Origin: Candidatus Omnitrophota bacterium
GTDB lineage: Bacteria; Omnitrophota; Gorgyraeia; B26-G9
DNA: 64,000 nucleotides
NCBI GenBank assembly: GCA_018817165.1
Contig: JAHITY010000114.1
Span: forward strand, 81,721-145,720
Reading direction: 5' to 3'
Of this stretch, positions 4,809 through 41,037 are shown piece by piece. A program made the translations under genes and the position numbers. The first letter of the stretch is position 1, and each line of letters begins with the position of its first letter. The notes under the pieces were generated by a model. The model was not told the DNA's origin. It searched no databases and was given only the letters and a program-made list of their open reading frames with translations.

Positions 4809-6088
4809 TAAATAGTGATTTGCTAATAGCTGGTCTTGATATCGGCAGCGCTAAAACCACCGTTTGTCTGGGGAGTTTTGATCCTCAGGGGCGGATAGAA
4901 ATTCATAATGCTTCGATGGTAAAGACGCGGGGCATGGAGCGGGGAGTAATAACTGATCTGGGTGAGGTTGCTGCTTGCATTGAAGAAGTGATCAAAAAAG
5001 TAGAAACCAAAATGCAGCGTTCTGAGCAGTCAAACACGCTTTGGCCGAAAAAAAATTTTAAAATTAATTCAGTTTACGCGACAATTAGCGGGGAGCATGT
5101 ATTAGGCAATAATACCAAAGGTATGCTTAATTTGTCCAACCATCCGATTGAGATCAGCCATAAGGATATGTTCAAAGCTATTGAATCAGCCAAGTATTTG
5201 TCTAGTTCAATTGACCGGGAAATTCTTCATGCTTTAGCTCAGGAATATGTGATCGACGGATACAAAAGGATCAAAGATCCTTTAGGAATTTACGCCACGC
5301 GTTTGGGAGTTAATCTCCACATCTTGACCGCGGAATTATCGTTTATCACTAATGTGGTTAAAACGATAAACCGCGCTGGCATTGATGTCGAGCAGATCGC
5401 TTATTCCGGTTTAGCAACCAGCTTGGCGACTATTACTGAGCAGGAAAAACAAGCGGGGGTGATTTTACTAGAGCTTGGTGCCGGCACTGTAAATATTTTG
5501 TTTTTCAGTGAAGGCAGTTTGCAGTATACAAGTGTTATTCCGATCGGCGGACAGGATATTACTCAGCAGATCAGCAGTTTGCTGAATATTGATTTTGCTC
5601 AGGCTGAAGAGTTGAAAATGCAGTATCGAAGCCGCTACGGCAATGATTTTGACCAAGGTAAGTGTGAAGGTAAGATAATAATAAAAAAGGACGCTGCTAA
5701 TTATGAAAGCATTACCCGGAAAGAATTGACAGATATTATTGATAAAAAGCTGGAAGTGATTTTGGGAATGATAAAAAAAGATATTGAAATGGCCGGGATT
5801 TTATCGCGGGTTAATTGCGGAGTGGTTGTTTGCGGCGGGATGTCGTTTATGGATGGGATTATTGAGCGCTTGGAAAAAATAACTAAACTTCCGGTAAATA
5901 TGGGGATAATGCGGGGATTTGTCAGCAGTTCTTCGGGAATGAGCAATATCTTTTACGCGACTGGTATTGGCTTAGTCATGCACGCGCTTAATGAGCGCAG
6001 GAATTTTAATCAGGGTGCTTTTTTAACTCATAGTGCTTTGGGCAAGGTATTTGCGAAAATCAAAAACATTTATGAGGAGTATTTTTAA
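4805..6088 (+). CDS. ftsA: Cell division protein FtsA (actin-like ATPase)
   Basis: LIAGLDIGSAKTTVCLG phosphate-1 motif, actin-fold blocks, 427 aa. Confidence 0.85.
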   Translation: MINSDLLIAGLDIGSAKTTVCLGSFDPQGRIEIHNASMVKTRGMERGVITDLGEVAACIEEVIKKVETKMQRSEQSNTLWPKKNFKINSVYATISGEHVLGNNTKGMLNLSNHPIEISHKDMFKAIESAKYLSSSIDREILHALAQEYVIDGYKRIKDPLGIYATRLGVNLHILTAELSFITNVVKTINRAGIDVEQIAYSGLATSLATITEQEKQAGVILLELGAGTVNILFFSEGSLQYTSVIPIGGQDITQQISSLLNIDFAQAEELKMQYRSRYGNDFDQGKCEGKIIIKKDAANYESITRKELTDIIDKKLEVILGMIKKDIEMAGILSRVNCGVVVCGGMSFMDGIIERLEKITKLPVNMGIMRGFVSSSSGMSNIFYATGIGLVMHALNERRNFNQGAFLTHSALGKVFAKIKNIYEEYF

Positions 6089-6089
6089 A

Positions 6090-7058
6090 ATGAAAGATAA
6101 TGTATCGATAATGCTTATTGATCGAGATAGCGCGGTATTGGATTCCTTTGCCAGCTTGTTTATTGAAGAAGGATATCAAGTGAATAAAGCAATGAGCTGG
6201 TTTGAAGCAAAATCAATTATTAAAATGAAGCCGGTTAATATTATTATCGCGGATGTTAAGCTCAGCGATATAAGCTATCAGGAAATGATTGAAAAAATTA
6301 GAGAAGATAATAAATACGCTTTTATTATTACCACTGCAGGATTCTCTGATATTGAAATGGCGATAGAATCAATTCAATTAGGGGCGCATGATTATCTGAG
6401 TAAGCCTTTTGACCCGTCGGACACAATTGTTTTGGTTCGTAAATTAGTCGAAAAGCAGCGTTTGCAGTCTGATAATATTCAGTTGTTTGATACCATTAAA
6501 GTTTTGGCGATGGCTTTAGATGCCCGCGATAATTATACGCATAATCATTCCCAGGAAGTTATGGAATATTCCGTAGCAATTGCCCGGGAGATGGGCTTAA
6601 GTGTCCGGGAAATAGAGATCATTCGTGATGCCGGAGCATTGCATGATATTGGAAAAATTGGTATCCCGGATGCCGTATTATTAAAGCCTGGAAGATTAAC
6701 TGATGAAGAATATGAGCAGATTAAAAAACATCCGGAAATCGGTAAAAGCATTCTTGAGCCGGTTAAATGTTTAGCCGACAACATTCCCTTGATTTATCAT
6801 CATCATGAGCGGATTGACGGGACTGGATATCCCGCTGGTTTGGCGGGTGAGGCGATTCCTTTGGGCGCGAGAATTCTTGCGGTGGCTGATTCTTATCAGG
6901 CGATGACTTCGGACCGTCCGTATCGTAAGGCTTTGTCCATGCAGATTGCGATAGGTGAATTGGAAAAATTTAAAGATAGGCAATTTGATTCTAAAGTAGT
7001 TGATGTTTTTCTTAGAATTTTAAAACGGATGGGTAATGGAAATACTAATAAAACATAA
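6090..7058 (+). CDS. Response regulator receiver fused to HD-GYP domain (putative c-di-GMP phosphodiesterase)
   Basis: REC-like N-terminus (MLIDRD...IIIADVKL); HD-GYP motifs HDIGKIGIPD and HHERIDGTGYP. Start chosen at MKDNV (nt 6090) rather than the upstream in-frame ATG 6033, which overlaps ftsA. Confidence 0.8.
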   Translation: MKDNVSIMLIDRDSAVLDSFASLFIEEGYQVNKAMSWFEAKSIIKMKPVNIIIADVKLSDISYQEMIEKIREDNKYAFIITTAGFSDIEMAIESIQLGAHDYLSKPFDPSDTIVLVRKLVEKQRLQSDNIQLFDTIKVLAMALDARDNYTHNHSQEVMEYSVAIAREMGLSVREIEIIRDAGALHDIGKIGIPDAVLLKPGRLTDEEYEQIKKHPEIGKSILEPVKCLADNIPLIYHHHERIDGTGYPAGLAGEAIPLGARILAVADSYQAMTSDRPYRKALSMQIAIGELEKFKDRQFDSKVVDVFLRILKRMGNGNTNKT

Positions 7059-11946: not shown

Positions 11947-11993
11947 AGCTCTAATTAGCGGTTATCGGGTTTATTGAGAGAGTAAGGACATTA

Positions 11994-12380
11994 TTGATTA
12001 TGAGTAAAAAAAACTTTTCTGTATTAGTTGTCGATGATGAGCCCGTTCTTAGGGAAACAGTCAAAAGGATTCTGTTTGATGAAGGTTTTAATGTTTTTGT
12101 TGCCGCGGATGGGAAGTCAGCGATTGAGGTTGCCAAAAATCAGGATTTAGACGCGGCGCTTTTAGATATTAAACTTCCTGATATTAACGGCGTGGAGGTT
12201 TTTGAAAGGATAAAAGTATTGAGGCCGAATCTCAAAGCGGTTATTATGACTGCTTTTGAAATAAAGGAATTGGTTAATCGCGCTTTTGAATTGGGCGCTT
12301 TTGCTTGTTTACATAAGCCTTTTGATATTAAAAAATTATTACATATTTTAAATGAAATTAAACGGGAAAATGAACAATAA
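11994..12380 (+). CDS. Single-domain response regulator (CheY-like REC)
   Basis: VLVVDDEPVLRE acidic pocket, conserved D and K positions, 128 aa. Confidence 0.8.
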   Translation: MIMSKKNFSVLVVDDEPVLRETVKRILFDEGFNVFVAADGKSAIEVAKNQDLDAALLDIKLPDINGVEVFERIKVLRPNLKAVIMTAFEIKELVNRAFELGAFACLHKPFDIKKLLHILNEIKRENEQ

Positions 12381-13803
12381 TTCTGAAAAATCCAAAATTC
12401 TGCTGGTTGATGATGAGCCGGTAATCAGAGAAACTTTATGCTCGATCTTAAAAGATGATGGGTATATTGTTTTAACTGCCGATAGTGGCGCGAAAGCGAT
12501 TGCTTTAGGTGAACAAGGTGATTTTGATGTAGCGATTATTGATTTAAAATTACCGGATACGGAAGGCACTGTTGTCCTGCATAATATTAAGAAAACCAAT
12601 CCCGCGATATGCGCTATTTTAATTACGGCTTATCCGACCACTGAATCAGCGATCCGGGCTATTCAAGAAGAAGCTTATGAATATATCACCAAACCGTTTG
12701 ATATCGGACATGTAAAACTGGTGATCAAGCGCGGATTGGAAGAAAGAAAACTGGAATTTGAAAATAAACGGCTTTTAAGTAATTTAAAAAAAGAAAAATC
12801 AAAACTTGAGACAATGCTTCAGCTTGGACACGCGATGAGTTCAATTCTGAATCTTGATGAATTAAGCGAGTTTATTGTCAATAAAATAACAGCTGTTTTA
12901 AACGCGAAAATCTGTTCATTGATGTTGATTGATCATGAGGATGAAACTTTGGTAATTAAGGCCGCGGTCGGGTTGGATGAGGCGATTATAAAAACAACTC
13001 GGATTAAACTCGGTCAATCGATCAGCGGCTGGGTCGCGCAGCAGGGCGAGCCGGTTTTAATTTCGAATATTGAAGATGATATTCAGTTTGGCCGAACGAA
13101 TCTGCCGAAATATGAAACAAAATCATTGCTCTGTATCCCCTTGAAAGTGAAAGATAATATTTTGGGAGTAATAAATGTCGCTGATAAAACTATTGCTGAA
13201 CAGGAAAATATTTTCACTGAAGAAGATATGCACTTTTTGGCAATAATCTGTAATTACGCGGCAATTGCTTTGGAAAACGCGTTATTGTATGGAGAAGTCA
13301 GAAAGCTCGCGATCACTGACGGTTTGACCAACTTGTATAATCACCGTTATTTTCAGACAAATATAAATTCTGAAGTGATCAGGGTTATGCGTTATCCCCG
13401 GCCTTTGTCTTTGATAATGTTTGACATTGATTTTTTTAAGAACTTTAATGATTCCTATGGGCATCCAATGGGCGATATTGTTTTAACTGAAATTGCTAAA
13501 GTAATTAAAAAAAATGTGCGCAAAGTTGATATCGCTTGTCGTTATGGCGGTGAAGAATTCGCGGTTATTCTGCCGGAAACAAAAATTAAAGAGGCGATAT
13601 TGGTTGCCGAGAAGATTAGGACTACTGTGGAAAATCTACGTTTTAATACTGGCAAGGGGACGAAGAAAGAAAAGATGACTCTCAGCGGAGGAGTTGCTCA
13701 GTTTAAATCAGGAATGACAAAAGTTGATTTTGTTCGCAGCGCGGATGATTCGCTTTATAAAGCGAAAACCGAGGGGAAGAACAAAATTTGTGTCCATTCT
13801 TGA
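12352..13803 (+). CDS. Response regulator REC-GAF-GGDEF diguanylate cyclase (GGEEF active site; RxxD I-site present)
   Basis: ILLVDDEPVIRE REC; GAF-like central region; ...RKVDIACRYGGEEFAVILPET GGDEF motif with I-site 5 residues upstream; start may be 12352 or 12370. Confidence 0.85.
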   Translation: MKLNGKMNNNSEKSKILLVDDEPVIRETLCSILKDDGYIVLTADSGAKAIALGEQGDFDVAIIDLKLPDTEGTVVLHNIKKTNPAICAILITAYPTTESAIRAIQEEAYEYITKPFDIGHVKLVIKRGLEERKLEFENKRLLSNLKKEKSKLETMLQLGHAMSSILNLDELSEFIVNKITAVLNAKICSLMLIDHEDETLVIKAAVGLDEAIIKTTRIKLGQSISGWVAQQGEPVLISNIEDDIQFGRTNLPKYETKSLLCIPLKVKDNILGVINVADKTIAEQENIFTEEDMHFLAIICNYAAIALENALLYGEVRKLAITDGLTNLYNHRYFQTNINSEVIRVMRYPRPLSLIMFDIDFFKNFNDSYGHPMGDIVLTEIAKVIKKNVRKVDIACRYGGEEFAVILPETKIKEAILVAEKIRTTVENLRFNTGKGTKKEKMTLSGGVAQFKSGMTKVDFVRSADDSLYKAKTEGKNKICVHS

Positions 13804-21881: not shown

Positions 21882-22982
21882 ATGAAAGCATGCAATATCA
21901 TGGAGGATATTACAAAGAAGTATCTTGATGAGATGCTGTCTATGCGTTTTGACATATGCACTTGTGATATTTGCAAGCAAGATATTATTGCTTTTGCTTT
22001 AACTCGGATCCCTCCTAAATATGTTACTGCTGAGTCTGCTTTCATGGATACTTTAATTGAACAAGCCCGCACAGAAAATTCTCAGCTGATATTAAAAGAA
22101 CTGGTTATGGCAATCCGAACAATAACGGCAAATCCGAAACATGAAGAAGGGCAGGATCGGGATAAAGCGTATCATTTGTTAATGAAGCAGATTAAAGATG
22201 ACCGGGGTGTGGATTTTTCTCATTATCGCGATCGAGTTTTAAAACGGAGGATTGCTTTGCGGATGCGGGCGAGAAATGTGCAAACATATTCTGAATACCT
22301 CCAGGTATTAATTCATAGCCCTGAAGAGTATGAGGATTTATTTGATGTTTTAACGATTAATGTTTCTGCGTTTTTTCGGGATAAGGTCGTGTGGGATAAG
22401 CTAAAACGAGATGTTTTTCCCGCGCTTATCGCTAAGAAATTAAAAGAGCATGGATTGCGGAGAATAAGGGTCTGGAGTGCTGGGTGTTCGCATGGAGAAG
22501 AGCCATATTCATTAGCGATTATGCTTTATGAATTGACAGAAAAAATGCCGGAAAAAATAAAAATAGAAATTTATGGCAGTGATATTGATCGAGAGTGTTT
22601 AAAACAAGCAATGCTTGGTCAATATGATAGTGAAAGTGTTAAAGGTCTAAGTGCTTATCAGTTGCGGCGGTTTTTTATTCCGGTTGGTGATAAATATCAG
22701 ATTGTTCCGCATGTAAAGGAGCTTGTTCAGTTTAAAAAACGGAATCTGATTCATGATCCGGCTTTTCCGGGCGTAGATATGGTTACTTGCCGCAATGTAT
22801 TTATCTATTTTAACCGCAGTTTGCAAGAGCATCTTATCATGAAATATCATGGGGCTTTAAATGATGAAGGTTATTTTGTTATGGGTACATCAGAAAATCT
22901 TTTGGGTGAAGCCAGACAGGTTTTTAGCGGAGTAGACAGCAGTTATCGAATTTATCAAAAAATCCCAATGAAACGGTATTGA
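21882..22982 (+). CDS. cheR: ComFB-like N-terminal domain fused to CheR-type chemotaxis protein methyltransferase
   Basis: N-terminus NIMEDITKKYL...ICTCDICKQDIIAFALTRIPPKYV (ComFB pattern, paralogous to upstream gene); C-terminal CheR blocks FFRD, VWSAGCSHGEEPYSLAIML, RNVFIYF. Confidence 0.8.
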   Translation: MKACNIMEDITKKYLDEMLSMRFDICTCDICKQDIIAFALTRIPPKYVTAESAFMDTLIEQARTENSQLILKELVMAIRTITANPKHEEGQDRDKAYHLLMKQIKDDRGVDFSHYRDRVLKRRIALRMRARNVQTYSEYLQVLIHSPEEYEDLFDVLTINVSAFFRDKVVWDKLKRDVFPALIAKKLKEHGLRRIRVWSAGCSHGEEPYSLAIMLYELTEKMPEKIKIEIYGSDIDRECLKQAMLGQYDSESVKGLSAYQLRRFFIPVGDKYQIVPHVKELVQFKKRNLIHDPAFPGVDMVTCRNVFIYFNRSLQEHLIMKYHGALNDEGYFVMGTSENLLGEARQVFSGVDSSYRIYQKIPMKRY

Positions 22983-24044: not shown

Positions 24045-24740
24045 ATGGCTGCAAATAAAAGAAGGTATTCACGCTTAGATTCTGTGATAAATGGCACATT
24101 TCTCTCCAGAGAAGATAATGCTGTTGGAGACATGATGCTGACTAATTTTAGCCGTGACGGATTTAAAGCCGCACTCAGCCGTCCGATAGTTCCCGGGAGA
24201 ATTATCCAGTTTCAAATGAGATATCCTAATCAGACAATGCCTATTTTTGCCACAGGTAAAGTAATGTGGGTTAAATCAAAAAATCAGGATTTAACGTATG
24301 GTTTTGACGCGGGGATACATCTTATTGAGCCAGACGCGATAATTCGTCAAAAAGCCAGTGAATATGATTTTGATAATTGGCATATCAAACAAGTTGCTGA
24401 CTTTGCCAAGCAAAGAGGTTATCTGGCTAAGCATTTTCCTGATCAGGTTTTTAAATTATCCTGTTTTGTGCCCAGCGCCTTATTAATATATTTTATTTTA
24501 GGAGCCATTGTTTCTTTTTTGAATGTAAATATGGCTTTAATATACTCCGCGAGTATTATGGCTTATTTTTTATCAATTTTTGTCACAACTGCAATTTGGC
24601 TATTAACTGAAAAGAGCCATAAAACATTGATTGAAAAAATATCAGTGATTTTTCCAGTTAGTGCTGCGCGGATTTCTGCACATATAAGCTACGGTGTATT
24701 TTTCTTGCGTGGTTTATTCTCAAAAAAGGAATATAACTAG
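24045..24740 (+). CDS. PilZ-domain protein with C-terminal transmembrane segments
   Basis: RRYSRL (RxxxR) ... NFSRDGFKAAL (D/NxSxxG-like) ... GKVMWVK; two hydrophobic helices near C-terminus. Confidence 0.55.
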   Translation: MAANKRRYSRLDSVINGTFLSREDNAVGDMMLTNFSRDGFKAALSRPIVPGRIIQFQMRYPNQTMPIFATGKVMWVKSKNQDLTYGFDAGIHLIEPDAIIRQKASEYDFDNWHIKQVADFAKQRGYLAKHFPDQVFKLSCFVPSALLIYFILGAIVSFLNVNMALIYSASIMAYFLSIFVTTAIWLLTEKSHKTLIEKISVIFPVSAARISAHISYGVFFLRGLFSKKEYN

Positions 24741-25495: not shown

Positions 25496-26830
25496 ATGGA
25501 GGAAAGAATGATTGCAAAAGTAGTAAACTTTTTTAAAACTGATATATGGCGGATTCGCACCAAAAATCTTTCGAAAACAAAATCAATTTTATTGAAACCC
25601 CTGATGATCATTGTTCTGGCATTGCGCAGTTTTGACGAGGATAAATGTCAGCTAAGAGCTTCAGCGCTTACGTTTTATTCCCTGATTTCTATTGTGCCGG
25701 TAGTGGCCATGGCTTTTGGCATTGCTAAAGGCTTTGGCTATGAACAGAAATTACAAGGCGTGATCTATGAAAAAATGGCAGGGCAGAAGGAAGTAGCGGA
25801 ATATATAGTTAATTTTGCTCAGTCTTTTTTAGAGAATACTAAAGGCGGAATTGTTGCTGGAATTGGAGTTGCTATACTGTTTTGGACAGTTATTAAAGTT
25901 TTGGGCAATATAGAAAAATCGTTTAATGATATTTGGGGGATAAAAATTTCTAGAAGCATTGGCAGGAAATTTAGTGATTACCTTTCGATTATGTTGATAT
26001 GCCCGATATTGCTGATTATTTCCAGTGGATTAACCGTGTTTATCGCAACTCAGGTTAAATTGATAGTAGCGAAAATATCGCTTTTAGGGGTATTGAGTCC
26101 GCTTATTATGTTTTCGCTTAATCTGCTCCCTTTTGTTCTGGTCTGGATTCTTTTTTCCTTCATATATATATTTATGCCTAATACTAAAGTTTATTTTAAA
26201 TCCGGGCTTGTCGGAGGGATTTTAGCCGGAACTTTATATCAGGTTATTCAGTGGGTTTATTTTACTTTTCAGGTTGGGGTGACAAAATACAATCAAGTAT
26301 ACGGAAGTTTTGCGGCATTGCCTCTATTCTTAGTCTGGATGCAGATCAGCTGGCTGATTGTTTTGTTTGGCGCTGAGATCTCTTTTGCCCGTCAGAATCT
26401 GGAGACTTATGAATTTGAGCCGGATTGCTTAAATGTCAGCTATAGCTATAAACAAATGCTGACAATTAATATTGTGCGTTTGATTTTTAACAGTTTTACT
26501 GTTGGCGGTAAAGTTTGGACTGCTGCCGCCATATCGCATGAGTTAGAAATACCAATCCGCTTAATCCGGCAGATACTGTTTGAATTAGTCGAAGCCGGTG
26601 TATTGATTGAAACAAAAGAATTGGCTGGCGCGGGAATCGGTTATCAGCCAGCGCATTCTCCGGAAAATCTAACGATCAAAGATATCATTTATAAATTAGA
26701 GCATAAGGGTACGGATGATATTCCTGTTACACAGAACAGTGCTTTTAAAGCAATCAAAGAGTCATTGTCAGCCATGGATAAGACTCTGAGCAAGTCCGCG
26801 GCTAATTTGAAGATAAACGAGATAAAATGA
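25496..26830 (+). CDS. YihY/BrkB-family inner membrane protein with ~130-aa C-terminal soluble extension
   Basis: LRASALTFYSLISIVPVVAMAFGIAKGFG family signature, 6 predicted TM, hydrophilic C-terminus. Confidence 0.75.
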   Translation: MEERMIAKVVNFFKTDIWRIRTKNLSKTKSILLKPLMIIVLALRSFDEDKCQLRASALTFYSLISIVPVVAMAFGIAKGFGYEQKLQGVIYEKMAGQKEVAEYIVNFAQSFLENTKGGIVAGIGVAILFWTVIKVLGNIEKSFNDIWGIKISRSIGRKFSDYLSIMLICPILLIISSGLTVFIATQVKLIVAKISLLGVLSPLIMFSLNLLPFVLVWILFSFIYIFMPNTKVYFKSGLVGGILAGTLYQVIQWVYFTFQVGVTKYNQVYGSFAALPLFLVWMQISWLIVLFGAEISFARQNLETYEFEPDCLNVSYSYKQMLTINIVRLIFNSFTVGGKVWTAAAISHELEIPIRLIRQILFELVEAGVLIETKELAGAGIGYQPAHSPENLTIKDIIYKLEHKGTDDIPVTQNSAFKAIKESLSAMDKTLSKSAANLKINEIK

Positions 26831-28469: not shown

Positions 28470-29249
28470 ATGAGTAACAAAAATAAAATTATAAGTTTCT
28501 TAAAATGGTCAAGAGTCGGAGCAATTGCTGTTTGTTTGATGATGATTGTTTCAACCCTGGCATTAGCCTCAGAAAATTTAAATGAGCGCGAATATGATAA
28601 AAAACAGGCATATTCTAATGGAATAAGCACTATGCCGCTGGCAACTCCGGAATATCTTCTTGATGTAAGTGATGTTATTGAAGTAGTTGTTTGGCGCAAT
28701 GAAGATTTAAGTAGAATTTTAAAAATTCGCCCAGACGGCAGGATATCACTTCCTTTAGCCGGAGAAGTAAAAGCTAGTGGACTTACTCCTAAGCAGTTAA
28801 GCGATGTAATTGCCGCGACCTTAGAGCGTAAATATATCCTCAATCCTCAGGTAACGGTTATTGTCCAGAAAGTTGAAAGCAAAACAATTATGGTATTGGG
28901 ACATGTTAATAAACCCGGGCAATACAATATTTCAGAAAAAGTTACAGCTTTGCAGGCTATTGCCAGAGCTGGCGGTAATTCTCAATTTGGTCATATGGAA
29001 AATGTGGTGGTTGTGCGTAATGCTTATGCGATGAAGCCAGCTATCTATAATATTGATTTACAGAGCGCGATGAATCAGGCGAATTATAGTAATGATATGC
29101 TTCTGCAGCCCGGAGATATTGTTTATGTGCCAAAGAATTTCTTGGGTAAAATCGACGATGTTATGGGATTTTTCAGACTTAATATTCAACCTACATTAAG
29201 TTCTTATTTACAGTATAGAACTTTGGAAGCAGTGGAAGATAATAATTAA
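28470..29249 (+). CDS. Wza/GumB/KpsD-family polysaccharide export protein (Poly_export + SLBB)
   Basis: Signal peptide; DVIEVVVWRNEDLSRILKIRPDGRISLPLAGEVKASGLTPKQL polysaccharide-export motif. Confidence 0.8.
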   Translation: MSNKNKIISFLKWSRVGAIAVCLMMIVSTLALASENLNEREYDKKQAYSNGISTMPLATPEYLLDVSDVIEVVVWRNEDLSRILKIRPDGRISLPLAGEVKASGLTPKQLSDVIAATLERKYILNPQVTVIVQKVESKTIMVLGHVNKPGQYNISEKVTALQAIARAGGNSQFGHMENVVVVRNAYAMKPAIYNIDLQSAMNQANYSNDMLLQPGDIVYVPKNFLGKIDDVMGFFRLNIQPTLSSYLQYRTLEAVEDNN

Positions 29250-29270: not shown

Positions 29271-30935
29271 GTGAAAGATAAAAATCAAGATAAAAAAGAT
29301 GTAGATTTAGTAGATGTCCTGGAGATTATTAAAAGAGGCAAGCTGATTATTACGGCTTCGGTAATCCTGACATTGGCAGCAACTTTTTTTGTCACAAAAG
29401 TGTTGATTACTCCGGTTTATCAGACAAGCGCGAAAATTCTGATTCGCGAAGAAAAGCTTAATCCTAAAGATGATTTTCCTATATATGAAACTGGTTCACA
29501 ATTCGCGATCACCCAAGGGGAGATCATTAAAAGTAAAAATGTGATCAGTAAGGCTTTAGAAAAAATAGATCTGACTGCCAAAGCTTTGAGCGGCATAGAT
29601 AAAAAATCGCTTAATATTAGTGAACTCCAGAAAAATATAGATATCAATCTTCTTGAGAGCACTAATGTTTTAGAACTTAAGATTGAACAAAAAAATCCGC
29701 TATTTGCCGCGGAATTGGCTAATTCTATTGCCCAAACTTATATTGATAATAGAGCCAGCATGAAAAATAATACTGTAGCTCAGATCATTGCTTCATTGGA
29801 AAATGAAGCTCAGACAGCGAAAACAGGTTTTATTGAAGTGGAGAATGAATTAACTCAAATCGCCAGCCAGGATAATATGATTATGATATCCGGGTCTGAT
29901 ATGGTTTTGGATTTGCAGAAATATGCTGATGCGGATATGCATTTAATTAATGCAAACGGGGACATTGAAATGGTTGATGCCCAGATCAATGCGATCAGGC
30001 AGAGTATTAAGCAGCAGAAAAATCCCGAAGAACTTAACTTGAAATTTATTGCGAATAGTGATATTATAAACGACCTGAAATCTCAAATCCGTTTAGCTGA
30101 TTTAAAGCTGGAATTACTAATGAGTCAGTTCAGTCCTAATCATCCTGATGTGGTTGTCGCTACAGCGGCTATTGCTATACTTAAGGCTGATATTGCTCAG
30201 GAAGCGGATAGAATTATTAAAGCGGAAGTTGAATTTTTAGAAACAGAGAAAAAATCTTTAGTTAGTAAAAAAGAAGTTTTGCTGACTGCTTATAAAAAGC
30301 AAACTGATCGTTTGGATAAAGTAATCAAAAATCAGCCAAAATTAGCAATGCTCAAACGTGATGTAGAAATGAAACGTTCGATTTATAGTGATCTTATGGA
30401 AAAACTGCAGGAAGTTAGGGTCCTCCAGCATAGAACAAGACTGTTGCCGGATGCGGAGATAATTGAATTAGCTGAAGTTCCTGCGCAACCAGCAAAACCG
30501 AGCTTATTGAAAAATTTATTACTGGGATTAGTTGCGGGCCTAACTATGGGATTTGCTTTGGCTTTAATGTTTTCGGTTTCCGCTCAAACCGAGGATAAAT
30601 CAGAGGCTAAAAAATTACAAGATATAGAAAGGAGGACTTCAAGGAGGACTAAAAGCGCGCATAAGGTTACTTGTAGTGTTGTTGGTGAAAAAAAGGAATA
30701 TGTTTGCTGGAGTAATGATGTTGGTTCTGCGGGAATGAAGATAATTACCGATGAGAAGTTAAAGGAAAATAATATACTTAAATTTGAAATTCATAGAGAT
30801 AAGATGAAGCCGATTGTTGGTAATGGTATGGTAGTTTGGACATCACCGGTTTCGAAGAACGGCAGTAATAATAGTTATGCGTCAGGGATAAAGTTTTATG
30901 ATGTAGAGCTGGATATTAATAAAGAAAAAGCGTAA
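29271..30935 (+). CDS. Polysaccharide co-polymerase (Wzz/Wzc-like PCP, no BY-kinase domain) with C-terminal PilZ-like domain
   Basis: N-terminal TM, long coiled-coil periplasmic region, second TM (LLLGLVAGLTMGFALALMF). C-terminal ~110 aa RRTSRRTK...DVGSAGMKI...GNGMVVW resembles RxxxR / DxSxGG / GxVvW PilZ blocks (degenerate). No Walker A. Confidence 0.6.
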   Translation: MKDKNQDKKDVDLVDVLEIIKRGKLIITASVILTLAATFFVTKVLITPVYQTSAKILIREEKLNPKDDFPIYETGSQFAITQGEIIKSKNVISKALEKIDLTAKALSGIDKKSLNISELQKNIDINLLESTNVLELKIEQKNPLFAAELANSIAQTYIDNRASMKNNTVAQIIASLENEAQTAKTGFIEVENELTQIASQDNMIMISGSDMVLDLQKYADADMHLINANGDIEMVDAQINAIRQSIKQQKNPEELNLKFIANSDIINDLKSQIRLADLKLELLMSQFSPNHPDVVVATAAIAILKADIAQEADRIIKAEVEFLETEKKSLVSKKEVLLTAYKKQTDRLDKVIKNQPKLAMLKRDVEMKRSIYSDLMEKLQEVRVLQHRTRLLPDAEIIELAEVPAQPAKPSLLKNLLLGLVAGLTMGFALALMFSVSAQTEDKSEAKKLQDIERRTSRRTKSAHKVTCSVVGEKKEYVCWSNDVGSAGMKIITDEKLKENNILKFEIHRDKMKPIVGNGMVVWTSPVSKNGSNNSYASGIKFYDVELDINKEKA

Positions 30936-30980: not shown

Positions 30981-31646
30981 ATGTCAACCGGAATCAATAT
31001 CGCAATTCCCAAAACAGAGGTAAAACTCGAGGATTGTTTTGCGGGTATTAATCAAAGATTTTATGAGTTTCTTAAAAGAAGCATGGATATATTCGGCAGT
31101 GCTCTTGCGCTGACCTTGGCCATGCCATTGATGCTGTTTATCGCGATTTTAATCAAGCTTACTTCTCCTGGCCCGATTTTTTATAAGCAGCAGCGCTGCA
31201 CTAAAAACGGTAAAGAATTTTGGTTGTATAAGTTTCGCTCTATGCCGGATAATATTGAAAATGGAAATGGACCTAAATGGGGAAAAACTGATGATCCCAG
31301 ATGCAATAATTTTGGCCGAATTTTGCGCTTATTACTTATTGACGAATTGCCTCAATTAATCAATGTTTTAAAAGGTGATATGAGTTTGGTTGGACCCAGA
31401 CCGGAAAGACCATTTTTTATAGAAAAATTTAGAAAGAGTGTTAAAGATTATGATTTGCGTCACAATATCAAAGCCGGGCTTACTGGTTGGGCGCAGGTTA
31501 ATGGGTATAGAGGCAATACTTCGATAGTAAAAAGAATTGAACATGATCTTTTTTACATGGAAAATAGATCTATATGTTTTGATCTTAAAATAATTCTGAT
31601 GACTCCATTTTCTATCCGACTGGCTAAATTAAAGTCAAAACAATAG
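30981..31646 (+). CDS. Bacterial sugar transferase (undecaprenyl-phosphate hexose-1-phosphate transferase, WbaP/WcaJ C-terminal-domain type)
   Basis: YKFRSM, DELPQLINVLKGDMSLVGPRPERP signature. Confidence 0.85.
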   Translation: MSTGINIAIPKTEVKLEDCFAGINQRFYEFLKRSMDIFGSALALTLAMPLMLFIAILIKLTSPGPIFYKQQRCTKNGKEFWLYKFRSMPDNIENGNGPKWGKTDDPRCNNFGRILRLLLIDELPQLINVLKGDMSLVGPRPERPFFIEKFRKSVKDYDLRHNIKAGLTGWAQVNGYRGNTSIVKRIEHDLFYMENRSICFDLKIILMTPFSIRLAKLKSKQ

Positions 31647-31940: not shown

Positions 31941-33368
31941 ATGAGTTTAAGACAGAAAACAATTCAAGGTTTGTGGTGGGGATTTGGCGCCAGGGTCTTT
32001 ATTCAGTTAAGCCAGTTTATTATTATGGCTGTTTTGGCGCATCTTCTGAGTCCAAGTGATTTTGGGCTTATTGGCATGGTCACAGTTTATTTTGGTTTTG
32101 CTTTGATGTTTGGGGAATTAGGAGTTAGCGCGGCTTTGATTCAAAGCCAAAAAGTCAATCAGGATCATTTTTCCTCAGCCTTTTGGATAAATCTTCTGGC
32201 TGGGATAACTCTGAGTTTAATTTTTTTATTAAGCGCTCCATTTATCGCGGGGTTTTATGCCAAACCAGAATTAATTAAGTTGATCCGGGTGATATCAATC
32301 AGCTGTTTTATTTCCTCTTTTTCAATTGTTCAATCAGCAATATTAAGAAAAGAAATGAATTTCAAAGCCATTGCTTTGGCCGAAAGCGCGGCGATTTTAA
32401 TTGCGGGAATACTCGGAATTTTCGCGGCCCTCAATGGTAAAGGGGTCTGGAGTTTGGTTTTTCATTTCATGAGTTTTATTTTTATCAAGAGTGTGCTTGT
32501 ATGGTTTTTTTCTCCCTGGCGGCCAAAATTTTTATTTTCTAAAACAGCGATTAAGGATATTTTTAGTTTTAGTATGAATATGACGGGGCTGAATATTGTG
32601 GAATATTTCGCCCGGAATATTGATTATTTATTAGTCGGCAAATTTCTCGGCGCCGGAGCATTGGGTTTGTATACTTTGGCTTATAAATTTATGCTTTATC
32701 CCTTACAGAATATCTCTAATGTCATCGGAGGGGTAATGTTTCCGGCTTTTTCTAAAATTCAGGATGATCTGGAGAAAGTTCGGGCAAATTATTTAAAAAT
32801 GGTCAAAGCGATTGCTTTGATTAGTTTTCCTTTAATGCTCGGCATGTTTGTGCTTGCCCCGGAATTTATCCGGATTGTGTTTGGGATTAAATGGGAACAA
32901 GCTATTCCGATAGTAAGGATATTAAGTTTTTGCGGGATGCTTCAATCTATTGAGGCTACAGTAGGCGATATCTTTCGTTCTCAAGGCAGAAGTGATATTC
33001 ATTTCAGACTACAGGTTGTGGGAACAATTATTGTTTCTCTGTGTATTTCAATTGGTTTAAAATGGGGCATAAAAGGAGTTGCTTGTTTGTATGCTTTGTA
33101 TAATTTTGCTTGGGTTCCTTATTTGATATCCCGATCAAATAATTTGATTAAATTAGCAAATAAACACTTAATCAAAGCAATTTATCCCGGGTTGTTAATA
33201 TCAGGATTAATTGCAGGATTGTTGAGTTTGATTAAATATTTTATTATTGCTTCGGATCTGTATATTTTACTTTTAGCCGTAGCATTGGGAGCGATTTTTT
33301 ATTTAGTTTTGCTGCTGTTCACAAAAAATATTTTAATCAGCAATAAGCGATTAGTATTGAACATTTAA
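31941..33368 (+). CDS. Wzx-like polysaccharide flippase (MOP/polysaccharide biosynthesis protein family)
   Basis: About 12-14 predicted TM helices, 475 aa, typical Wzx hydropathy pattern and position in locus. Confidence 0.7.
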   Translation: MSLRQKTIQGLWWGFGARVFIQLSQFIIMAVLAHLLSPSDFGLIGMVTVYFGFALMFGELGVSAALIQSQKVNQDHFSSAFWINLLAGITLSLIFLLSAPFIAGFYAKPELIKLIRVISISCFISSFSIVQSAILRKEMNFKAIALAESAAILIAGILGIFAALNGKGVWSLVFHFMSFIFIKSVLVWFFSPWRPKFLFSKTAIKDIFSFSMNMTGLNIVEYFARNIDYLLVGKFLGAGALGLYTLAYKFMLYPLQNISNVIGGVMFPAFSKIQDDLEKVRANYLKMVKAIALISFPLMLGMFVLAPEFIRIVFGIKWEQAIPIVRILSFCGMLQSIEATVGDIFRSQGRSDIHFRLQVVGTIIVSLCISIGLKWGIKGVACLYALYNFAWVPYLISRSNNLIKLANKHLIKAIYPGLLISGLIAGLLSLIKYFIIASDLYILLLAVALGAIFYLVLLLFTKNILISNKRLVLNI

Positions 33369-34193: not shown

Positions 34194-35687
34194 TTGCATA
34201 AGGGGAAAATGAAAGAAAATATAAAAAAAATAGTTTTAATTAATCCACCTTGGATTTTTGCGCATGAACGGGAGATAGTCCTTTCGCAAAATTTAGGTTT
34301 GGGCTATTTGACGGCATATCTATTAAAACATGGTCATCAGGTTGAGATTATTGATGCTCTTTGTGAGGGTATTAATAATTATCAAAAGATAAAAAGTAAT
34401 GATCAGCCATTTTTACAAGTAGGTTTAGATTATCAGCAAATAGTCAAAAGAATCCCTTTGGACACAGATTTTATCGGGATTTCCGCTCCCTTTACCAATA
34501 ATGCGAAAATAGTCAAGCAATTAGCACATGTAATAAAAGAAAGTTTCCCGGAGATTCCAATTATTATGGGTGGGGTATATCCGTCATTGACTCCTTATGA
34601 TGCATTTTGCGAAAAGATTGAATATTATGTCATCGGCGAGGGGGAAAAGGCTTTGCTTGATTTGGTTAATGGGCAAGAGCCAAATCAGATTAAAGGAGTG
34701 CTTTGTTTTGGTAAGTCTAAAGGCTTTGAAGCTGGACAAATAATTGAAAATTTAGATCAGCTGCCTTTTCCGGCACGCGATAAATTGCCGATGAGTAAAT
34801 ATGTTAATTTTCATTCTCCCCGCAGGCTGCAACTTAAAACCGGATCAATAATCACTTCACGCGGCTGTCCGTTTGACTGTACTTTTTGTTCAATTCATCG
34901 GATTACCGGTTATAAATGGCGAATGCGCTCAGCGGAAAATGTTTTAGCGGAAATTCGGGAATTAGTTGAGAAATATGGGGTAGAGCATATTGAGTTTGAG
35001 GATGATAATCTTACTCTTGATAAGCAGAGGGCATTGGCAATATTTGAGGGGCTTATAAAAATAAACAAAGAACTTAAGCCTTTATCTTGGTCAACGCCCA
35101 ATGCAGTGCGGATTGATACGCTAGATCGGGATTTATTGGAAAAAATCAAGCAGTCGAATTGCCTGTCTTTGAATTTCGCGATTGAGTCTGGGGATCCGGA
35201 ATTATTAAAAAAGATGAATAAAAAACTTGATTTGAATACTGTCTTAGAAATGACAAGATTATGCAAAGCATTAAATATTAAAATGAATGCTTTTTTTATG
35301 ATCGGTTATCCCGGAGAAGACCAGGCAAGTTTTCAGAAAACTTTAAGTTTTATTAAGGAAATAAAAATAATCGGCGTGGACAATGTTTATACGACCATCA
35401 CGCGCGCTTATCCTGGTACAAAGCTCTATGAATTTTGTGAAAAAAATAATTATATTACAATTAAAGATAAGCAAATAAACACTTATTTGGGCAATGCGAT
35501 TACTCCGGAAAATCTGATTGTTACTCCGGATTTTGATAAAAAAGTTTTGCTTAAGAGATTAGCTTTGGTGGAAAAAGCGGTATATCCATGGTATCTGCGA
35601 TTTTATCATCGGTACGCGTATTTGATAAAAAAAATAATTCCAATTAATATGATAAAATATATAAAAAAGTTGATTGATGAAAAATAA
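34194..35687 (+). CDS. B12-binding-domain radical SAM enzyme (class B)
   Basis: N-terminal B12-binding-like region, TSRGCPFDCTFCSI CxxxCxxC; conserved DQLPFPARD block shared with paralog at 44321. Confidence 0.8.
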   Translation: MHKGKMKENIKKIVLINPPWIFAHEREIVLSQNLGLGYLTAYLLKHGHQVEIIDALCEGINNYQKIKSNDQPFLQVGLDYQQIVKRIPLDTDFIGISAPFTNNAKIVKQLAHVIKESFPEIPIIMGGVYPSLTPYDAFCEKIEYYVIGEGEKALLDLVNGQEPNQIKGVLCFGKSKGFEAGQIIENLDQLPFPARDKLPMSKYVNFHSPRRLQLKTGSIITSRGCPFDCTFCSIHRITGYKWRMRSAENVLAEIRELVEKYGVEHIEFEDDNLTLDKQRALAIFEGLIKINKELKPLSWSTPNAVRIDTLDRDLLEKIKQSNCLSLNFAIESGDPELLKKMNKKLDLNTVLEMTRLCKALNIKMNAFFMIGYPGEDQASFQKTLSFIKEIKIIGVDNVYTTITRAYPGTKLYEFCEKNNYITIKDKQINTYLGNAITPENLIVTPDFDKKVLLKRLALVEKAVYPWYLRFYHRYAYLIKKIIPINMIKYIKKLIDEK

Positions 35688-35841: not shown

Positions 35842-37353
35842 ATGAAAATTACATTTATTTATCCGGATGTGATCGGCAGTGCCAATTATACCGGTATCTT
35901 TAATTTGGGGATCGGGCTTTTATCCGGGGTATTAAAAAAAGCGGGATTTCAGACATCTTTAATTCATATTAGTCAGCCGATTACGAAAATTGATTTTATC
36001 CGGCAGCTAAAAAGAGAAAACGCTGATCTTTATGCGTTTTCGACAACGACTCCGATGTTTAATTTTGTTCAGGATTGGGCTCAGTGGATCAAGGAAAATG
36101 ATCCCAGTAAATTAATCCTGGTTGGCGGAGTGCACGCGATTTTAAATCCAGAAGAGGTGTTTTCTTGCCCGGCAGTTGATTTTGTTTGTACCGGAGAAGG
36201 GGAATATCCTATTTTAGCACTTTGCAATGCTTTAAAACATAAGCAGGCTGTTCAAGGTATCAATGGCTTATGGACTAAAGAAAAAGGCAAGATTATCAAA
36301 ACTCCAAATCAAGCTTTGATCAAGGATCTGGATCAATTGCCATTTGCTGATAGAACTATTTTTAATTATAAGAACTTGATGGAAGGCAAAGAACAAATGT
36401 TTTTTGTCATGGCTTCACGCGGCTGTCCGTATAATTGTCCTTATTGCTGCAATCAAAGTATTCGGGAGAGTATTGCGGAGAATCAATCATGGGTAAGGTT
36501 TCGCAGTGTGGATAATGTGATTCAGGAAATTCAGCAAGTTTTAAAGCTTTACCCCCAGACGAAATTTATTGGTTTTTATGATGATATTTTGGCTTTAAAA
36601 AAAGATTGGTTTGCTGAGTTTACCGAAAAATATAAAAAATATATAAAATTACCATTCCGCTGTAATATGCGGGCGAATTATTTGGCTAAGGAAGAAATTA
36701 CTCGGATGATGTATGAGGCTGGTTGTCGAAGAGTTATTATTGGTTTAGAAAGCGGCAATGAAGGTTTGCGCAATGGAATTTTGCAGCGAAATATGTCAGA
36801 GGCTGTTATTTTGGAATCAGGTAGATTATGTAAAAAATACGGGATTGAATTCGCGACTTTTAATATGGTGGGATTGCCGGGTGAAGGCGCGGCTGAAATT
36901 CTGGACACAGTAAAGCTCAATGCCCGTTTAAATGCTGATTTTACTTATACATCGATTTTCTATCCTTTTGCCAAAACCGCTTTGCACGCATTGTGTGAAG
37001 ATAAAAAGCTATTAACGGATCGGATTATTACTGATTATGTTGAGGGCAGTATGCTTGATTTTGATCATCCGACTATTTGCCGGATAATCTTTGTCCGCAA
37101 CTTTTTCCGGCCATTAATGAATCTCTACAGATTGATTTATAAGCTGCCCAAAAGAATAAAAAAATACGCGGAGAAAATAATTGATCTTTTTTTAGGTTCA
37201 AAAATAATTGCAGTTACCTTGTTTGCCGCGGTCAATTTTTTATTTGCTACTGTGCGGGATAATAAGATTCTAGCTGGGTTTATCAATTGGCTTAAAAGAA
37301 TCGGAAAATCAAGAAAAATATCAATGTTCAATTCCAGTTTAAAGAAGAGCTAA
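35842..37353 (+). CDS. B12-binding-domain radical SAM enzyme (class B)
   Basis: ASRGCPYNCPYCCN cluster motif, LDQLPFADR block, 503 aa. Confidence 0.8.
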   Translation: MKITFIYPDVIGSANYTGIFNLGIGLLSGVLKKAGFQTSLIHISQPITKIDFIRQLKRENADLYAFSTTTPMFNFVQDWAQWIKENDPSKLILVGGVHAILNPEEVFSCPAVDFVCTGEGEYPILALCNALKHKQAVQGINGLWTKEKGKIIKTPNQALIKDLDQLPFADRTIFNYKNLMEGKEQMFFVMASRGCPYNCPYCCNQSIRESIAENQSWVRFRSVDNVIQEIQQVLKLYPQTKFIGFYDDILALKKDWFAEFTEKYKKYIKLPFRCNMRANYLAKEEITRMMYEAGCRRVIIGLESGNEGLRNGILQRNMSEAVILESGRLCKKYGIEFATFNMVGLPGEGAAEILDTVKLNARLNADFTYTSIFYPFAKTALHALCEDKKLLTDRIITDYVEGSMLDFDHPTICRIIFVRNFFRPLMNLYRLIYKLPKRIKKYAEKIIDLFLGSKIIAVTLFAAVNFLFATVRDNKILAGFINWLKRIGKSRKISMFNSSLKKS

Positions 37354-39564: not shown

Positions 39565-41037
39565 GTGGATCTTATGAAAAATATGACAATTAGTAAAATC
39601 TTGATAATCGGATTAGTTTGTTTGCTGATCGGGGGGATTTTGCCGTATTTGTTTCTGAATTTGTCGGGCAAGCTGATTATTTTGTTTGGCGCTTTATTGG
39701 TTATTTTAGGTCTGCTGCTGATTAAAAAAGGTAAAATCACGATTTATGATTGGCTAATTTTATTTTTTCTCAGCATTCCATTTCATGATTATCGGATAAT
39801 GTTTGGTTCTTTCTTTTTGAGATTGACCGAGGTTTGTTTTATTCCTTTGCTGGTCTGGGGAGTAATTCAAATGACCCGGCAGGAGGCTGATCGGAGAAAT
39901 TTGTTTAAACTTAACGCGGAATATATAATTCTCCTGTTTTTTTCTGCTTTTACGGCTATGTCGGTTTTGCTTTCAGCTGATCCGTTTGTTGGCACATATC
40001 GCACAATAATTCTTGCTTATCTAGTTATCCTGTCGTTCATTATTTCTAAAGTGCTGAAAGAGGAAGATAAGATTTATCTGATTGTCAAAGCCCTGATCGC
40101 GGTTTCCGCGGGGGCGAGTATTTTCGCGATTTTACAGGCTTTTTTGCCGGCATTTCAGCCGTTTTACCCAATCCCTTTGATTCAATTAGGTTCTGTAACT
40201 CTCTACCGCAGCGGTGTGGGCTGGCAAAATCCAAATTATTTCGCTTTGTATCTAAGCATGATTTTGCCGATCACTTATGTTTGTAAAATATATAAACTGT
40301 TCCCGGAAAAAAAATTTATCCAAACTTGCTTTGTTTTACAGACATGCGGTATATTCTGTACTTATTCTAGATTAGGATTTATTTCCCTGGGGCTGACTTT
40401 TCTTTTTCTGTTGTGGGTAAGAGGCAAGAAGACATTGGTGTTGATCATGGTGATTGTTATCGCTGTTTTATCAGTGCTTACATTTACTAGTATGGCCTAT
40501 ATTTACGAGCATAATCCTTATTTGGCAGTAACAATATTCCGCATCCCTAATCCTGGCTTAGTATTGAAGAATCCTTTGTTGATCGCCGGATGGCGGAGAG
40601 ATGCCTGGGTGGCCAATGCCCGGATGTTTTTAGATCATCCCTTTATTGGTATCGGTCCGTTTATGTCCACGGCAATGTATGAACAATATCGGCCGACTGA
40701 TCAGGTCTATCCTTGGAAATCAGGATTAGCTGTGCACAGTGAATATTTGTCTTTACTGTCTGAACGAGGGATAATTGGCACTGCTTTGTTTTTTCTGTTT
40801 TTATTGTTTTTAATGACCCGGGCAAATCTTTATTATCAGCAAAATAAGTCAGCGGTCTCTGGTAAACTGATGCTGGGATTATGGGCAAGCATTGTTAATT
40901 TTATCTGGTTTTCTTTTGGCGGTGCAACGATTTACTCCGTAGAGTTCTGGATCAATGTGGGATTGATTCTCGCGGTGTATAATCTGGGCAAAGCAAAGCG
41001 GATCGAAGAAAATCAATTGAATCAACTTGATAAATAA
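39565..41037 (+). CDS. O-antigen ligase / Wzy-type polymerase family membrane protein
   Basis: About 11 TM; Wzy_C-like block AVHSEYLSLLSERGIIGTALF (H-x-x-Y-L-x4-E-x-G-x2-G). Confidence 0.6.
   Translation: MDLMKNMTISKILIIGLVCLLIGGILPYLFLNLSGKLIILFGALLVILGLLLIKKGKITIYDWLILFFLSIPFHDYRIMFGSFFLRLTEVCFIPLLVWGVIQMTRQEADRRNLFKLNAEYIILLFFSAFTAMSVLLSADPFVGTYRTIILAYLVILSFIISKVLKEEDKIYLIVKALIAVSAGASIFAILQAFLPAFQPFYPIPLIQLGSVTLYRSGVGWQNPNYFALYLSMILPITYVCKIYKLFPEKKFIQTCFVLQTCGIFCTYSRLGFISLGLTFLFLLWVRGKKTLVLIMVIVIAVLSVLTFTSMAYIYEHNPYLAVTIFRIPNPGLVLKNPLLIAGWRRDAWVANARMFLDHPFIGIGPFMSTAMYEQYRPTDQVYPWKSGLAVHSEYLSLLSERGIIGTALFFLFLLFLMTRANLYYQQNKSAVSGKLMLGLWASIVNFIWFSFGGATIYSVEFWINVGLILAVYNLGKAKRIEENQLNQLDK

Follow-up and report, generated by a model that had tools for sequence, protein, structure and literature searches.

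A polysaccharide co-polymerase carrying a C-terminal PilZ domain in a Wzx/Wzy-type gene cluster of Candidatus Omnitrophota

The window analyzed here, a 64,000-nt stretch of contig JAHITY010000114.1 (assembly GCA_018817165.1) from a Candidatus Omnitrophota bacterium, contains an exopolysaccharide (EPS) gene cluster of the Wzx/Wzy type in which a polysaccharide co-polymerase (PCP) is fused to a PilZ domain. The fusion, referred to below as PCP-PilZ, is encoded by a 554-aa open reading frame (ORF) at 29271..30935 (+) of the ORF list. Its start codon is GTG, with a Shine-Dalgarno-like GGGG stretch 7-8 nt on the 5' side (the sequence preceding the start is AAAAAGGGGATAAACC), and a gap of 22 nt separates it from the stop codon of the gene encoding the outer-membrane export protein (OPX). 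An initial annotation of this DNA had described the product as a Wzc/Wzz-like PCP with a PilZ-like C-terminus in place of the bacterial tyrosine kinase (BY-kinase). The peptide strings on which that description was based, RTSRR, DVGSAG and GNGMVVW (the last at aa 517-523), can each be located in the ORF translation, and the tail does follow the second transmembrane (TM) helix of the PCP, with a linker between TM2 and the PilZ domain. The position from which the feature had been counted, 30590, is one base off frame, the in-frame codon being 30591. The parts of the protein and the principal genes around it are listed in Table 1.

Table 1. Parts of the PCP-PilZ protein, its partners in the EPS cluster and the c-di-GMP enzymes encoded in the window.
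Feature	Coordinates	Strand	Residues or size	Evidence
REC-HD-GYP (HD_5), putative cyclic di-GMP (c-di-GMP) phosphodiesterase	6033..7058	+		Pfam HD_5 140 bits, REC
REC-GAF-GGDEF diguanylate cyclase	12352..13803	+		Pfam GGDEF 155 bits, REC, GAF
OPX (Wza-like) outer-membrane export protein	28470..29249	+		Pfam Poly_export 84.6 bits, SLBB_2 55.8 bits
TM helix 1	29361..29417	+	aa 31-49	Kyte-Doolittle 19-aa window peak 2.01; AlphaFold2 (AF2) helix 13-45
Periplasmic PCP domain, alpha/beta base and long helical hairpins	29418..30515	+	aa ~50-415	AF2, Foldseek
TM helix 2, ends GNVR region	30516..30572	+	aa 416-434	hydropathy peak 2.3; translation LLLGLVAGLTMGFALALMF
Variable cytoplasmic linker	30573..30626	+	aa 435-452	conservation
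PilZ domain	30627..30914	+	aa 453-548	Pfam PF07238, AF2, Foldseek
RxxxR motif R455-T-S-R-R459	30633..30647	+	aa 455-459	translation
Second PilZ motif DVGSAG, Gly485 for Ser of (D/N)xSxxG	30717..30734	+	aa 483-488	translation
Small phosphoglycosyl transferase (PGT), Bac_transf	30981..31646	+	221 aa	Pfam 214.6 bits
Wzx flippase	31941..33368	+		Pfam Polysacc_synt_3 314.5 bits
Wzy-type polymerase	39565..41037	+		Pfam Wzy_C 72.4 bits

The N-terminal 436 aa are a polysaccharide co-polymerase with PCP-2-type architecture. Pfam reports a Wzz match (PF02706) at aa 10-98, which includes TM1 and scores 41.3 bits against a cutoff of 25.5, as well as a match at aa 358-433 to GNVR, the Pro/Gly-rich segment leading into TM2, whose 38.5 bits are also above the cutoff. 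In NCBIfam, EpsF (TIGR03017) and pepcterm_ChnLen (TIGR03007), the chain-length determinant of the XrtA system, come out best, followed by Wzc as a weak third, with all three scores falling under the respective equivalog cutoffs. Hydropathy analysis identifies exactly two TM segments, at aa 31-49 and aa 416-434, and lysine and arginine residues cluster N-terminally of TM1 and C-terminally of TM2 (9 residues in the 30 aa following TM2 versus 1 in the 20 aa preceding it). The topology predicted from these features consists of a cytoplasmic N-terminus, TM1, a helical periplasmic domain of ~365 aa, TM2 and a cytoplasmic tail; PCPs usually have this arrangement, in which the two termini are cytoplasmic. 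A full-length AF2 model, derived from 9 sequences, was of moderate confidence (predicted local distance difference test, pLDDT, 64; periplasmic blocks mostly 65-89) and contains long helices at aa 143-391. This model was used solely to match the PCP fold, for which the best Foldseek matches in the Protein Data Bank (PDB) were Wzc (9r68, 7nhr and related entries), then WzzE and KpsE, with a probability of 1.00 throughout. Both the Pfam matches and the first place of Wzc among the folds agree with the PCP identity proposed initially.

The last ~100 aa of the protein are a PilZ domain. When searched alone, the C-terminal 114 aa match Pfam PilZ (PF07238) with 35.3 bits (E 1.6e-8), above the gathering threshold of 22.5 bits and over profile positions 1-90 of 102. 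AF2 modeling of the last 105 aa from a 39-sequence alignment yielded a six-stranded barrel (pLDDT 82; predicted template modeling score 0.72), and the top 28 PDB matches of this model in Foldseek are all PilZ domains, with template modeling scores of 0.59-0.76. BcsA is the top match, and MotI, YcgR, PA0012, MrkH, VCA0042, Alg44 (4xrn) and MapZ are among the others. Complexes of BcsA, YcgR, MrkH, VCA0042, Alg44 and MapZ with c-di-GMP are among these structures, and the best matches of the barrel are c-di-GMP-bound PilZ domains. A profile of the family, when searched against PDB sequences, reaches MotI, and the RxxxR and NISxGG columns of the two line up. Hence, the two checks that had been suggested for the tail, a PilZ hidden Markov model (HMM) and a comparison of a structural model with the PilZ beta-barrel, both came out in its favor.

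The more distant sequence comparisons are less decisive. Pfam bears out both of the PilZ proteins in the window to which the tail had originally been compared, at 24045 and 61033, and in pairwise hhalign comparisons their motifs align with those of the tail as had been proposed, but the matches are weak (E ~0.005). Likewise, a phmmer search of PDB sequences with the single 114-aa tail sequence returned no match, and the family profile was needed. Taken alone, these two results would fit a chance resemblance or the decaying remnant of a fused gene. Such an explanation is refuted by the Pfam score above the cutoff, the AF2 model, an unambiguous fold search and the PilZ matches of the wider family, in which the domain is retained down to 19% overall identity, as well as by the 69% identity of the domain among close orthologs; we regard it as vanishingly improbable. 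A full-length Pfam scan of the window protein (the query) does not report PilZ, nor does the database entry for the identical protein carry it in its precomputed annotation, so automatic annotation would miss the domain in this protein. We suspect that the missed match is a filter or composition effect of the long coiled-coil region. The domain is matched in 8 of 8 full-length close orthologs, and full-length Pfam scans of the 14 aligned members of the wider family report GNVR in all 14 and PilZ in 13.

The family is rare. Following the suggestion that relatives be examined for PCP-PilZ fusions, HMMER was run exhaustively over 1.84 billion cluster representatives with a 200-aa query spanning GNVR, TM2 and PilZ, and ~15 clusters (50% identity) matched over the whole query, 11 of them full-length proteins (535-575 aa) and 4 of them fragments. 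According to spot checks, the remaining matches are PCPs or Wzc proteins that match over GNVR alone, or PilZ proteins that match over the barrel alone. Independent PCP-PilZ fusions were found nowhere else, as the candidates with long tails or two matched stretches, among them P0086, P0118, P0091, P0161, P0109 and P0052, proved to be ordinary Wzc proteins or kinase-less PCPs and a further candidate, P0170, is a PilZ-FeeM protein. The query has 8 full-length orthologs at 54-73% identity. Close orthologs derive from metagenome-assembled genomes (MAGs) of Candidatus Omnitrophota, with one MAG labeled as uncultured Planctomycetia, and the distant member P0039 has neighbor proteins at least 90% identical to those of an Omnitrophica MAG. 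As far as can be told, the fusion is restricted to Candidatus Omnitrophota wherever its members can be assigned.

Within this family, conservation of the PilZ domain equals or exceeds that of the periplasmic domain (69% and 63% identity, respectively, among close orthologs), while the ~16-18-aa linker after TM2 retains 30% identity versus 63-72% elsewhere in the protein. R454, R455, R459 and G488 are invariant in the 9 close sequences, in which position 483 is either D or N; R455 and R459 are invariant in the 9 close and 14 distant members; and the RxxxR motif was found in 29 of 29 family sequences checked. Across these 29, RxxxR, D/N483 and G488 are all invariant or nearly so, down to 19% identity. 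The distant members (19-31% identity to the query) all combine RxxxR with a canonical (D/N)xSxxG motif, and the second-motif column of the wide alignment has Ser in 13 of 14 sequences. We consider it likely that the PilZ domains of the family bind c-di-GMP.

In the place where a Wzc protein would carry its kinase, PCP-PilZ has none. The protein has no Pfam match to AAA_31, CbiA or ParA, and no kinase-type Pfam match occurs on window ORFs of at least 110 aa. Similarly, an HMM made from 19 Wzc BY-kinase domains, which scores 189-280 bits on Wzc proteins as a positive control, yields no match on PCP-PilZ and none among ORFs of at least 70 aa in the window and 13 related loci (L001-L013), 215 kb altogether. 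The initial statement that the tail lacks a Walker-A kinase extends to the whole window and to these loci. The trait defining PCP-2a, a fused C-terminal BY-kinase with a Tyr-rich tail, is absent from PCP-PilZ and, as far as could be tested within the DNA examined, so is the trait defining PCP-2b, an adjacent separate BY-kinase gene. Conceivably, PCP-PilZ belongs to PCP-2b and the gene for its separate BY-kinase lies in another part of the genome, in which case the PilZ domain would be an extra input and no substitute. The DNA covered comprises 64 kb from a contig that is at least 127 kb long, together with 10-kb flanks of the related loci, and the best NCBIfam models, EpsF and the XrtA chain-length determinant, belong to families that work with separate kinases. 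However, PCP-2b kinases are normally encoded right beside the PCP, whereas the 215 kb of 14 loci yielded no kinase ORF. In addition, a PCP-2b activates its kinase through a short C-terminal tail, and it is exactly this place that the PilZ domain occupies. A separate kinase is consequently quite improbable in our estimation.

One relative of the fusion proteins lacks the PilZ domain and is informative about their origin. P0041 (L014 2164-3471; GCA_043826625.1) is a 435-aa PCP that stops 6 aa after TM2, with 160 nt of clean intergenic sequence behind its stop codon. The order of genes at its locus is OPX, PCP, PGT, a GT2 glycosyltransferase (GT), a B12-binding radical S-adenosylmethionine (SAM) enzyme, a GT4 and Wzy, with no kinase. 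P0041 is 37% identical to P0039 and 34% identical to the query, both values exceeding the 27% between P0039 and the query. In bootstrapped neighbor-joining trees of the PCP part, the fusions are monophyletic together with P0041 in 195 of 200 replicates and by themselves in 0 of 200. The simplest reading of these trees is a single fusion event and, subsequently, one secondary loss of PilZ in P0041. As this PilZ-less protein nests within the fusion clade, PilZ would be an accessory regulatory module and no structural necessity, and it seems to have been added onto a PCP lineage that lacks a kinase. The initial description of a PilZ domain "instead of a BY-kinase" is accurate with respect to its position in the protein. 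As an account of an evolutionary swap of kinase for PilZ it was not adopted, because the nearest PilZ-less relative is also kinase-less and nests within the family.

The genetic context of the fusion is likewise conserved. In each of the 12 related loci whose flanks are intact, the genes come in the order OPX, PCP-PilZ and PGT, surrounded by Wzx, Wzy and GT genes; these loci include those of members only 20-30% identical to the query. Comparison of the window with L001-L013 gives identities of 37-86% for OPX, 51-80% for PGT and 20-76% for PCP-PilZ, the co-polymerase being the fast-evolving member of the trio. Downstream of the PGT, the window encodes Wzx, methyltransferases, four B12-binding radical SAM enzymes, glycosyltransferases and the Wzy_C protein. 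With a PGT gene directly 3' of the fusion in all 12 loci and better conserved than the fusion itself, one might suppose that PilZ does bind c-di-GMP but targets the adjacent small PGT, so that it would control initiation and the committing of undecaprenyl phosphate, and neither chain length nor export. There are precedents for such control: a 2025 paper on Wzx/Wzy regulation (PMC12802240) documents that kinases associated with PCPs, and also a response regulator, control PGTs post-translationally, citing the CapAB kinase, which activates the small PGT CapM of S. aureus, and the action of EpsW upon EpsZ. Conversely, the order OPX-PCP-PGT is also kept in the PilZ-less locus L014 and hence the synteny is not PilZ-specific. 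An action on the PGT in place of chain length or export would seem rather unlikely.

Several other features of the cluster and its surroundings were observed. The four B12-binding radical SAM genes are located at 34194-35687, 35842-37353, 44321-45799 and 45924-47375 (+), and the cluster further encodes several SAM methyltransferases and a GT4-methyltransferase fusion (42283-44187). B12-binding radical SAM genes recur in the clusters of distant members (L006/L007 and L009) and in L014. This complement of genes suggests an unusually modified polysaccharide, possibly a C-methylated one. A membrane protein of the BrkB family, whose C-terminus gives a weak Rrf2-like match, is encoded upstream of the EPS cluster at 25496-26830 (+), and a BrkB homolog is found upstream of OPX in L011 as well (L011 2206-3528). 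GC skew is uniformly and strongly positive (0.09-0.26) over positions 1-50000 of the window, and all ORFs of at least 110 aa with a Pfam match are on the plus strand up to ~50 kb; beyond this point the values drop to much lower levels for the most part, and genes on the minus strand occur.

The host organism clearly uses c-di-GMP, as the window encodes a GGDEF diguanylate cyclase, an HD-GYP protein, two further PilZ proteins and a ComFB-CheR fusion. The cyclase belongs to a group of genes at 9729-13803 (+) that also includes two histidine kinases and a stand-alone REC protein. In L010, the locus of a distant member, a REC and HD-GYP pair is located 2.3 kb 3' of the PCP-PilZ module. The first of the two additional PilZ proteins of the window (24045-24740, +) has 231 aa and begins with a PilZ domain (aa 4-88, 27.5 bits), whereas the ~140 aa that extend it at the C-terminus are without a Pfam match. 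The second (61033-61407) is a stand-alone canonical PilZ protein adjoining a gene at 57722-60826 (-) whose 1034-aa product has a weak AsmA-family match (32.9 bits). The ComFB-CheR fusion (21882-22982, +) combines ComFB with CheR_N and the SAM-binding domain of CheR. A role of ComFB as a receptor for cyclic dinucleotides (c-di-NMP) was described recently, and a PNAS 2025 paper (PMC12448109) reports the very same ComFB-CheR architecture from Candidatus Omnitrophota.

Based upon these features, we propose with moderate confidence that the protein is the PCP of a Wzx/Wzy-dependent EPS pathway in Candidatus Omnitrophota and that its PilZ tail would give c-di-GMP an input to polymerization and export or to initiation. 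In known PilZ proteins, including the structures of BcsA, YcgR, PlzD and Alg44, c-di-GMP is clamped between the RxxxR arm and the beta2-beta3 turn, upon which the linker becomes ordered. Since the PilZ domain of PCP-PilZ is cytoplasmic and begins ~20 residues after TM2, its RxxxR arm would be part of the membrane-proximal linker. Accumulating c-di-GMP made by GGDEF proteins would then bind between this linker and the turn that carries (D/N)x(S/G)xxG in the barrel. In the most parsimonious model, the ligand may order, rigidify or shorten the connection between TM2 and the barrel, or else cross-link neighboring protomers, and the conformation or oligomeric state of the PCP would change as a result. 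In its changed state, the PCP would license the Wzy/OPX machinery or the adjacent small PGT, such that EPS is made and exported at high c-di-GMP. Ligand binding, the direction of regulation and the controlled step are thus what we infer from the architecture, and the adjacent PGT and chain length or export would be equally open as targets of c-di-GMP. A more specific and decidedly tentative version of the proposal has a cytoplasmic ring of PilZ domains taking the role of the BY-kinase cycle, with c-di-GMP, possibly as an intercalated dimer bridging protomers, driving assembly and disassembly of the PCP and thereby switching Wzy and OPX. If this were true, it would be the first case of a Wzx/Wzy pathway in which a nucleotide second messenger acts as a direct post-translational gate without tyrosine phosphorylation.

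Certain observations weigh against a c-di-GMP input through this particular protein. Firstly, the second motif of the query reads D483-V-G485-S-A-G488, with Gly replacing Ser. The motif had been recognized as degenerate from the beginning, and this is correct, although the change is confined to the query's subclade: Ser is present in 5 of the 9 close orthologs (D-x-S-S-S-G) and Gly in the other 4, namely the query and three with D/N-I-G-R-S-G. The family sequences with Gly in place of Ser include, besides the query, P0007-9, P0031 and P0032. Replacement of this Ser by Ala weakened c-di-GMP binding in PilZ proteins that have been studied experimentally. Secondly, proteins of the query clade terminate ~6 aa past the last strand and the canonical C-terminal helix is absent, the AF2 model of PilZ having a mere 3-residue helical turn at its C-terminus; distant clades have a C-terminal extension of the 'EREKLINYLY' type. 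In the PilZ review by Galperin and Chou, the C-terminal helix is regarded as a key interaction element for protein-protein contacts. Thirdly, the PilZ part of the full-length AF2 model has a pLDDT of 43-63, a poor result that permits no inference on how the barrel packs against the membrane or neighboring protomers. Fourthly, the existence of P0041 in an otherwise identical cluster implies that the pathway can run without PilZ. Apart from these points, the significance of the fusion is limited by the rarity of the family, by its apparent restriction to Omnitrophota that are uncultured, as are the source organisms of all members, and by PilZ being a promiscuous domain.

The first two of these points also define an alternative, in which the PilZ domain of the query subclade has ceased to bind c-di-GMP and serves as a ligand-independent interaction module that tethers a cytoplasmic partner to the PCP. 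PA2960 and XC1028 are PilZ proteins that do not bind the nucleotide. Among the structures matched by the family profile are 3dsg and 3cnr, non-binding PilZ proteins of type IV fimbriae, and the PilZ score of the query is low enough to be missed by a full-length scan. Despite this, R454, R455, R459, D/N483 and G488 are still invariant in the subclade, whereas non-binding PilZ domains typically lose RxxxR. The D/N-x-G-x-G-G form likewise recurs with an intact RxxxR in related domains: ~8 of ~60 related stand-alone PilZ domains that retain RxxxR have Gly for Ser (e.g., DVGGGG and NIGGGG), and this co-occurrence marks the substitution as a recurrent natural variant. Furthermore, PilZ domains in fusion proteins keep c-di-GMP binding, as stated in the same review (Galperin and Chou). 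For these reasons, we consider a non-binding module unlikely, albeit an alternative to be taken seriously. Gly485 and the missing C-terminal helix do leave the binding competence of the query uncertain, and for this protein the balance would tip only slightly toward c-di-GMP binding, less so than for the family as a whole. Overall, a c-di-GMP-related function of PCP-PilZ would be plausible.

The proposed c-di-GMP-responsive PCP can be compared with characterized PCPs and with characterized PilZ proteins. Among the PCPs, it most resembles the PCP-2a protein Wzc (E. coli K30/K12; 7NHR, 9R68), with which it shares the Wzz motif, TM1, a helical periplasmic domain, GNVR/TM2 and a cytoplasmic C-terminal regulatory domain, as well as the proximity of a Wza-like OPX gene in a Wzx/Wzy cluster. 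Wzc proteins are its best fold matches and its nearest non-family sequence matches (21-24% identity). The distinction resides in the cytoplasmic domain, where Wzc has a Walker-type BY-kinase of ~270-290 aa with a Tyr-rich tail and PCP-PilZ has a PilZ barrel of ~100 aa; accordingly, Wzc is cycled by autophosphorylation, whereas the input to PCP-PilZ would be a second messenger. Like the PCP-2b proteins (CapA/CapB, EpsF/EpsG and the XrtA-system chain-length determinant), it is a PCP polypeptide without a fused kinase, but it has no separate kinase gene in the DNA examined and carries a folded PilZ domain in contrast to the short kinase-activating tail of PCP-2b.

Among the PilZ proteins, the closest functional analogy is Alg44, the alginate co-polymerase of P. 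aeruginosa (4RT0/4XRN), also an inner-membrane EPS "co-polymerase" with a cytoplasmic PilZ domain and a large periplasmic domain. Unlike PCP-PilZ, Alg44 has its PilZ domain at the N-terminus, a single TM helix and an HlyD/MFP-like periplasmic domain, and it operates in a synthase-dependent pathway with Alg8. Neither an HlyD match in Pfam scans of PCP-PilZ nor an Alg8-like synthase partner was found in the cluster, which is of the Wzx/Wzy type. The cellulose synthase BcsA (4P00), the top Foldseek match, similarly has a C-terminal PilZ domain on an EPS membrane protein with the RxxxR linker beside the membrane domain; however, its PilZ domain gates the active site of its own glycosyltransferase, whereas PCP-PilZ has no catalytic domain. 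MotI/YpfA and YcgR contain the closest PilZ domains by structure (5vx6, template modeling score 0.76) and by profile search, with aligned RxxxR and NISxGG columns. These are, by contrast, soluble flagellar brakes with an N-terminal PilZN domain, the canonical Ser and a C-terminal helix.

A full-text search of open-access papers found no description of a PCP-PilZ or Wzz-PilZ fusion, and no mention of one emerged when the PilZ review, a 2025 review of capsule chain length and the 2025 Wzx/Wzy regulation paper (PMC12802240) were examined for the relevant terms. The sole reflection of the fusion in the databases is the NCBI product name "PilZ domain-containing protein" on one ortholog. What appears to be new is the fusion of a PilZ c-di-GMP receptor domain to a Wzx/Wzy PCP; fusions of PilZ to EPS secretion components were already known, and in this sense the protein is not categorically new. 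Direct post-translational control by c-di-GMP is well established for the synthase-dependent systems BcsA, Alg44, PelD and PgaCD. For the very widespread Wzx/Wzy pathways, post-translational regulation is described in PMC12802240 as incompletely understood, and the documented routes are tyrosine phosphorylation or a response regulator. A PCP with a PilZ regulatory domain would connect these pathways with the c-di-GMP control of the synthase type. The cytoplasmic tail of PCPs would then appear as a swappable regulatory socket, and the family would offer a ligand-controlled model for the passage of signals through TM2 of a PCP to the polymerase and exporter. With its PilZ-less relative, its Ser and Gly motif variants and its members with and without the C-terminal helix, the family would likewise constitute a comparative series in which such control may be examined.

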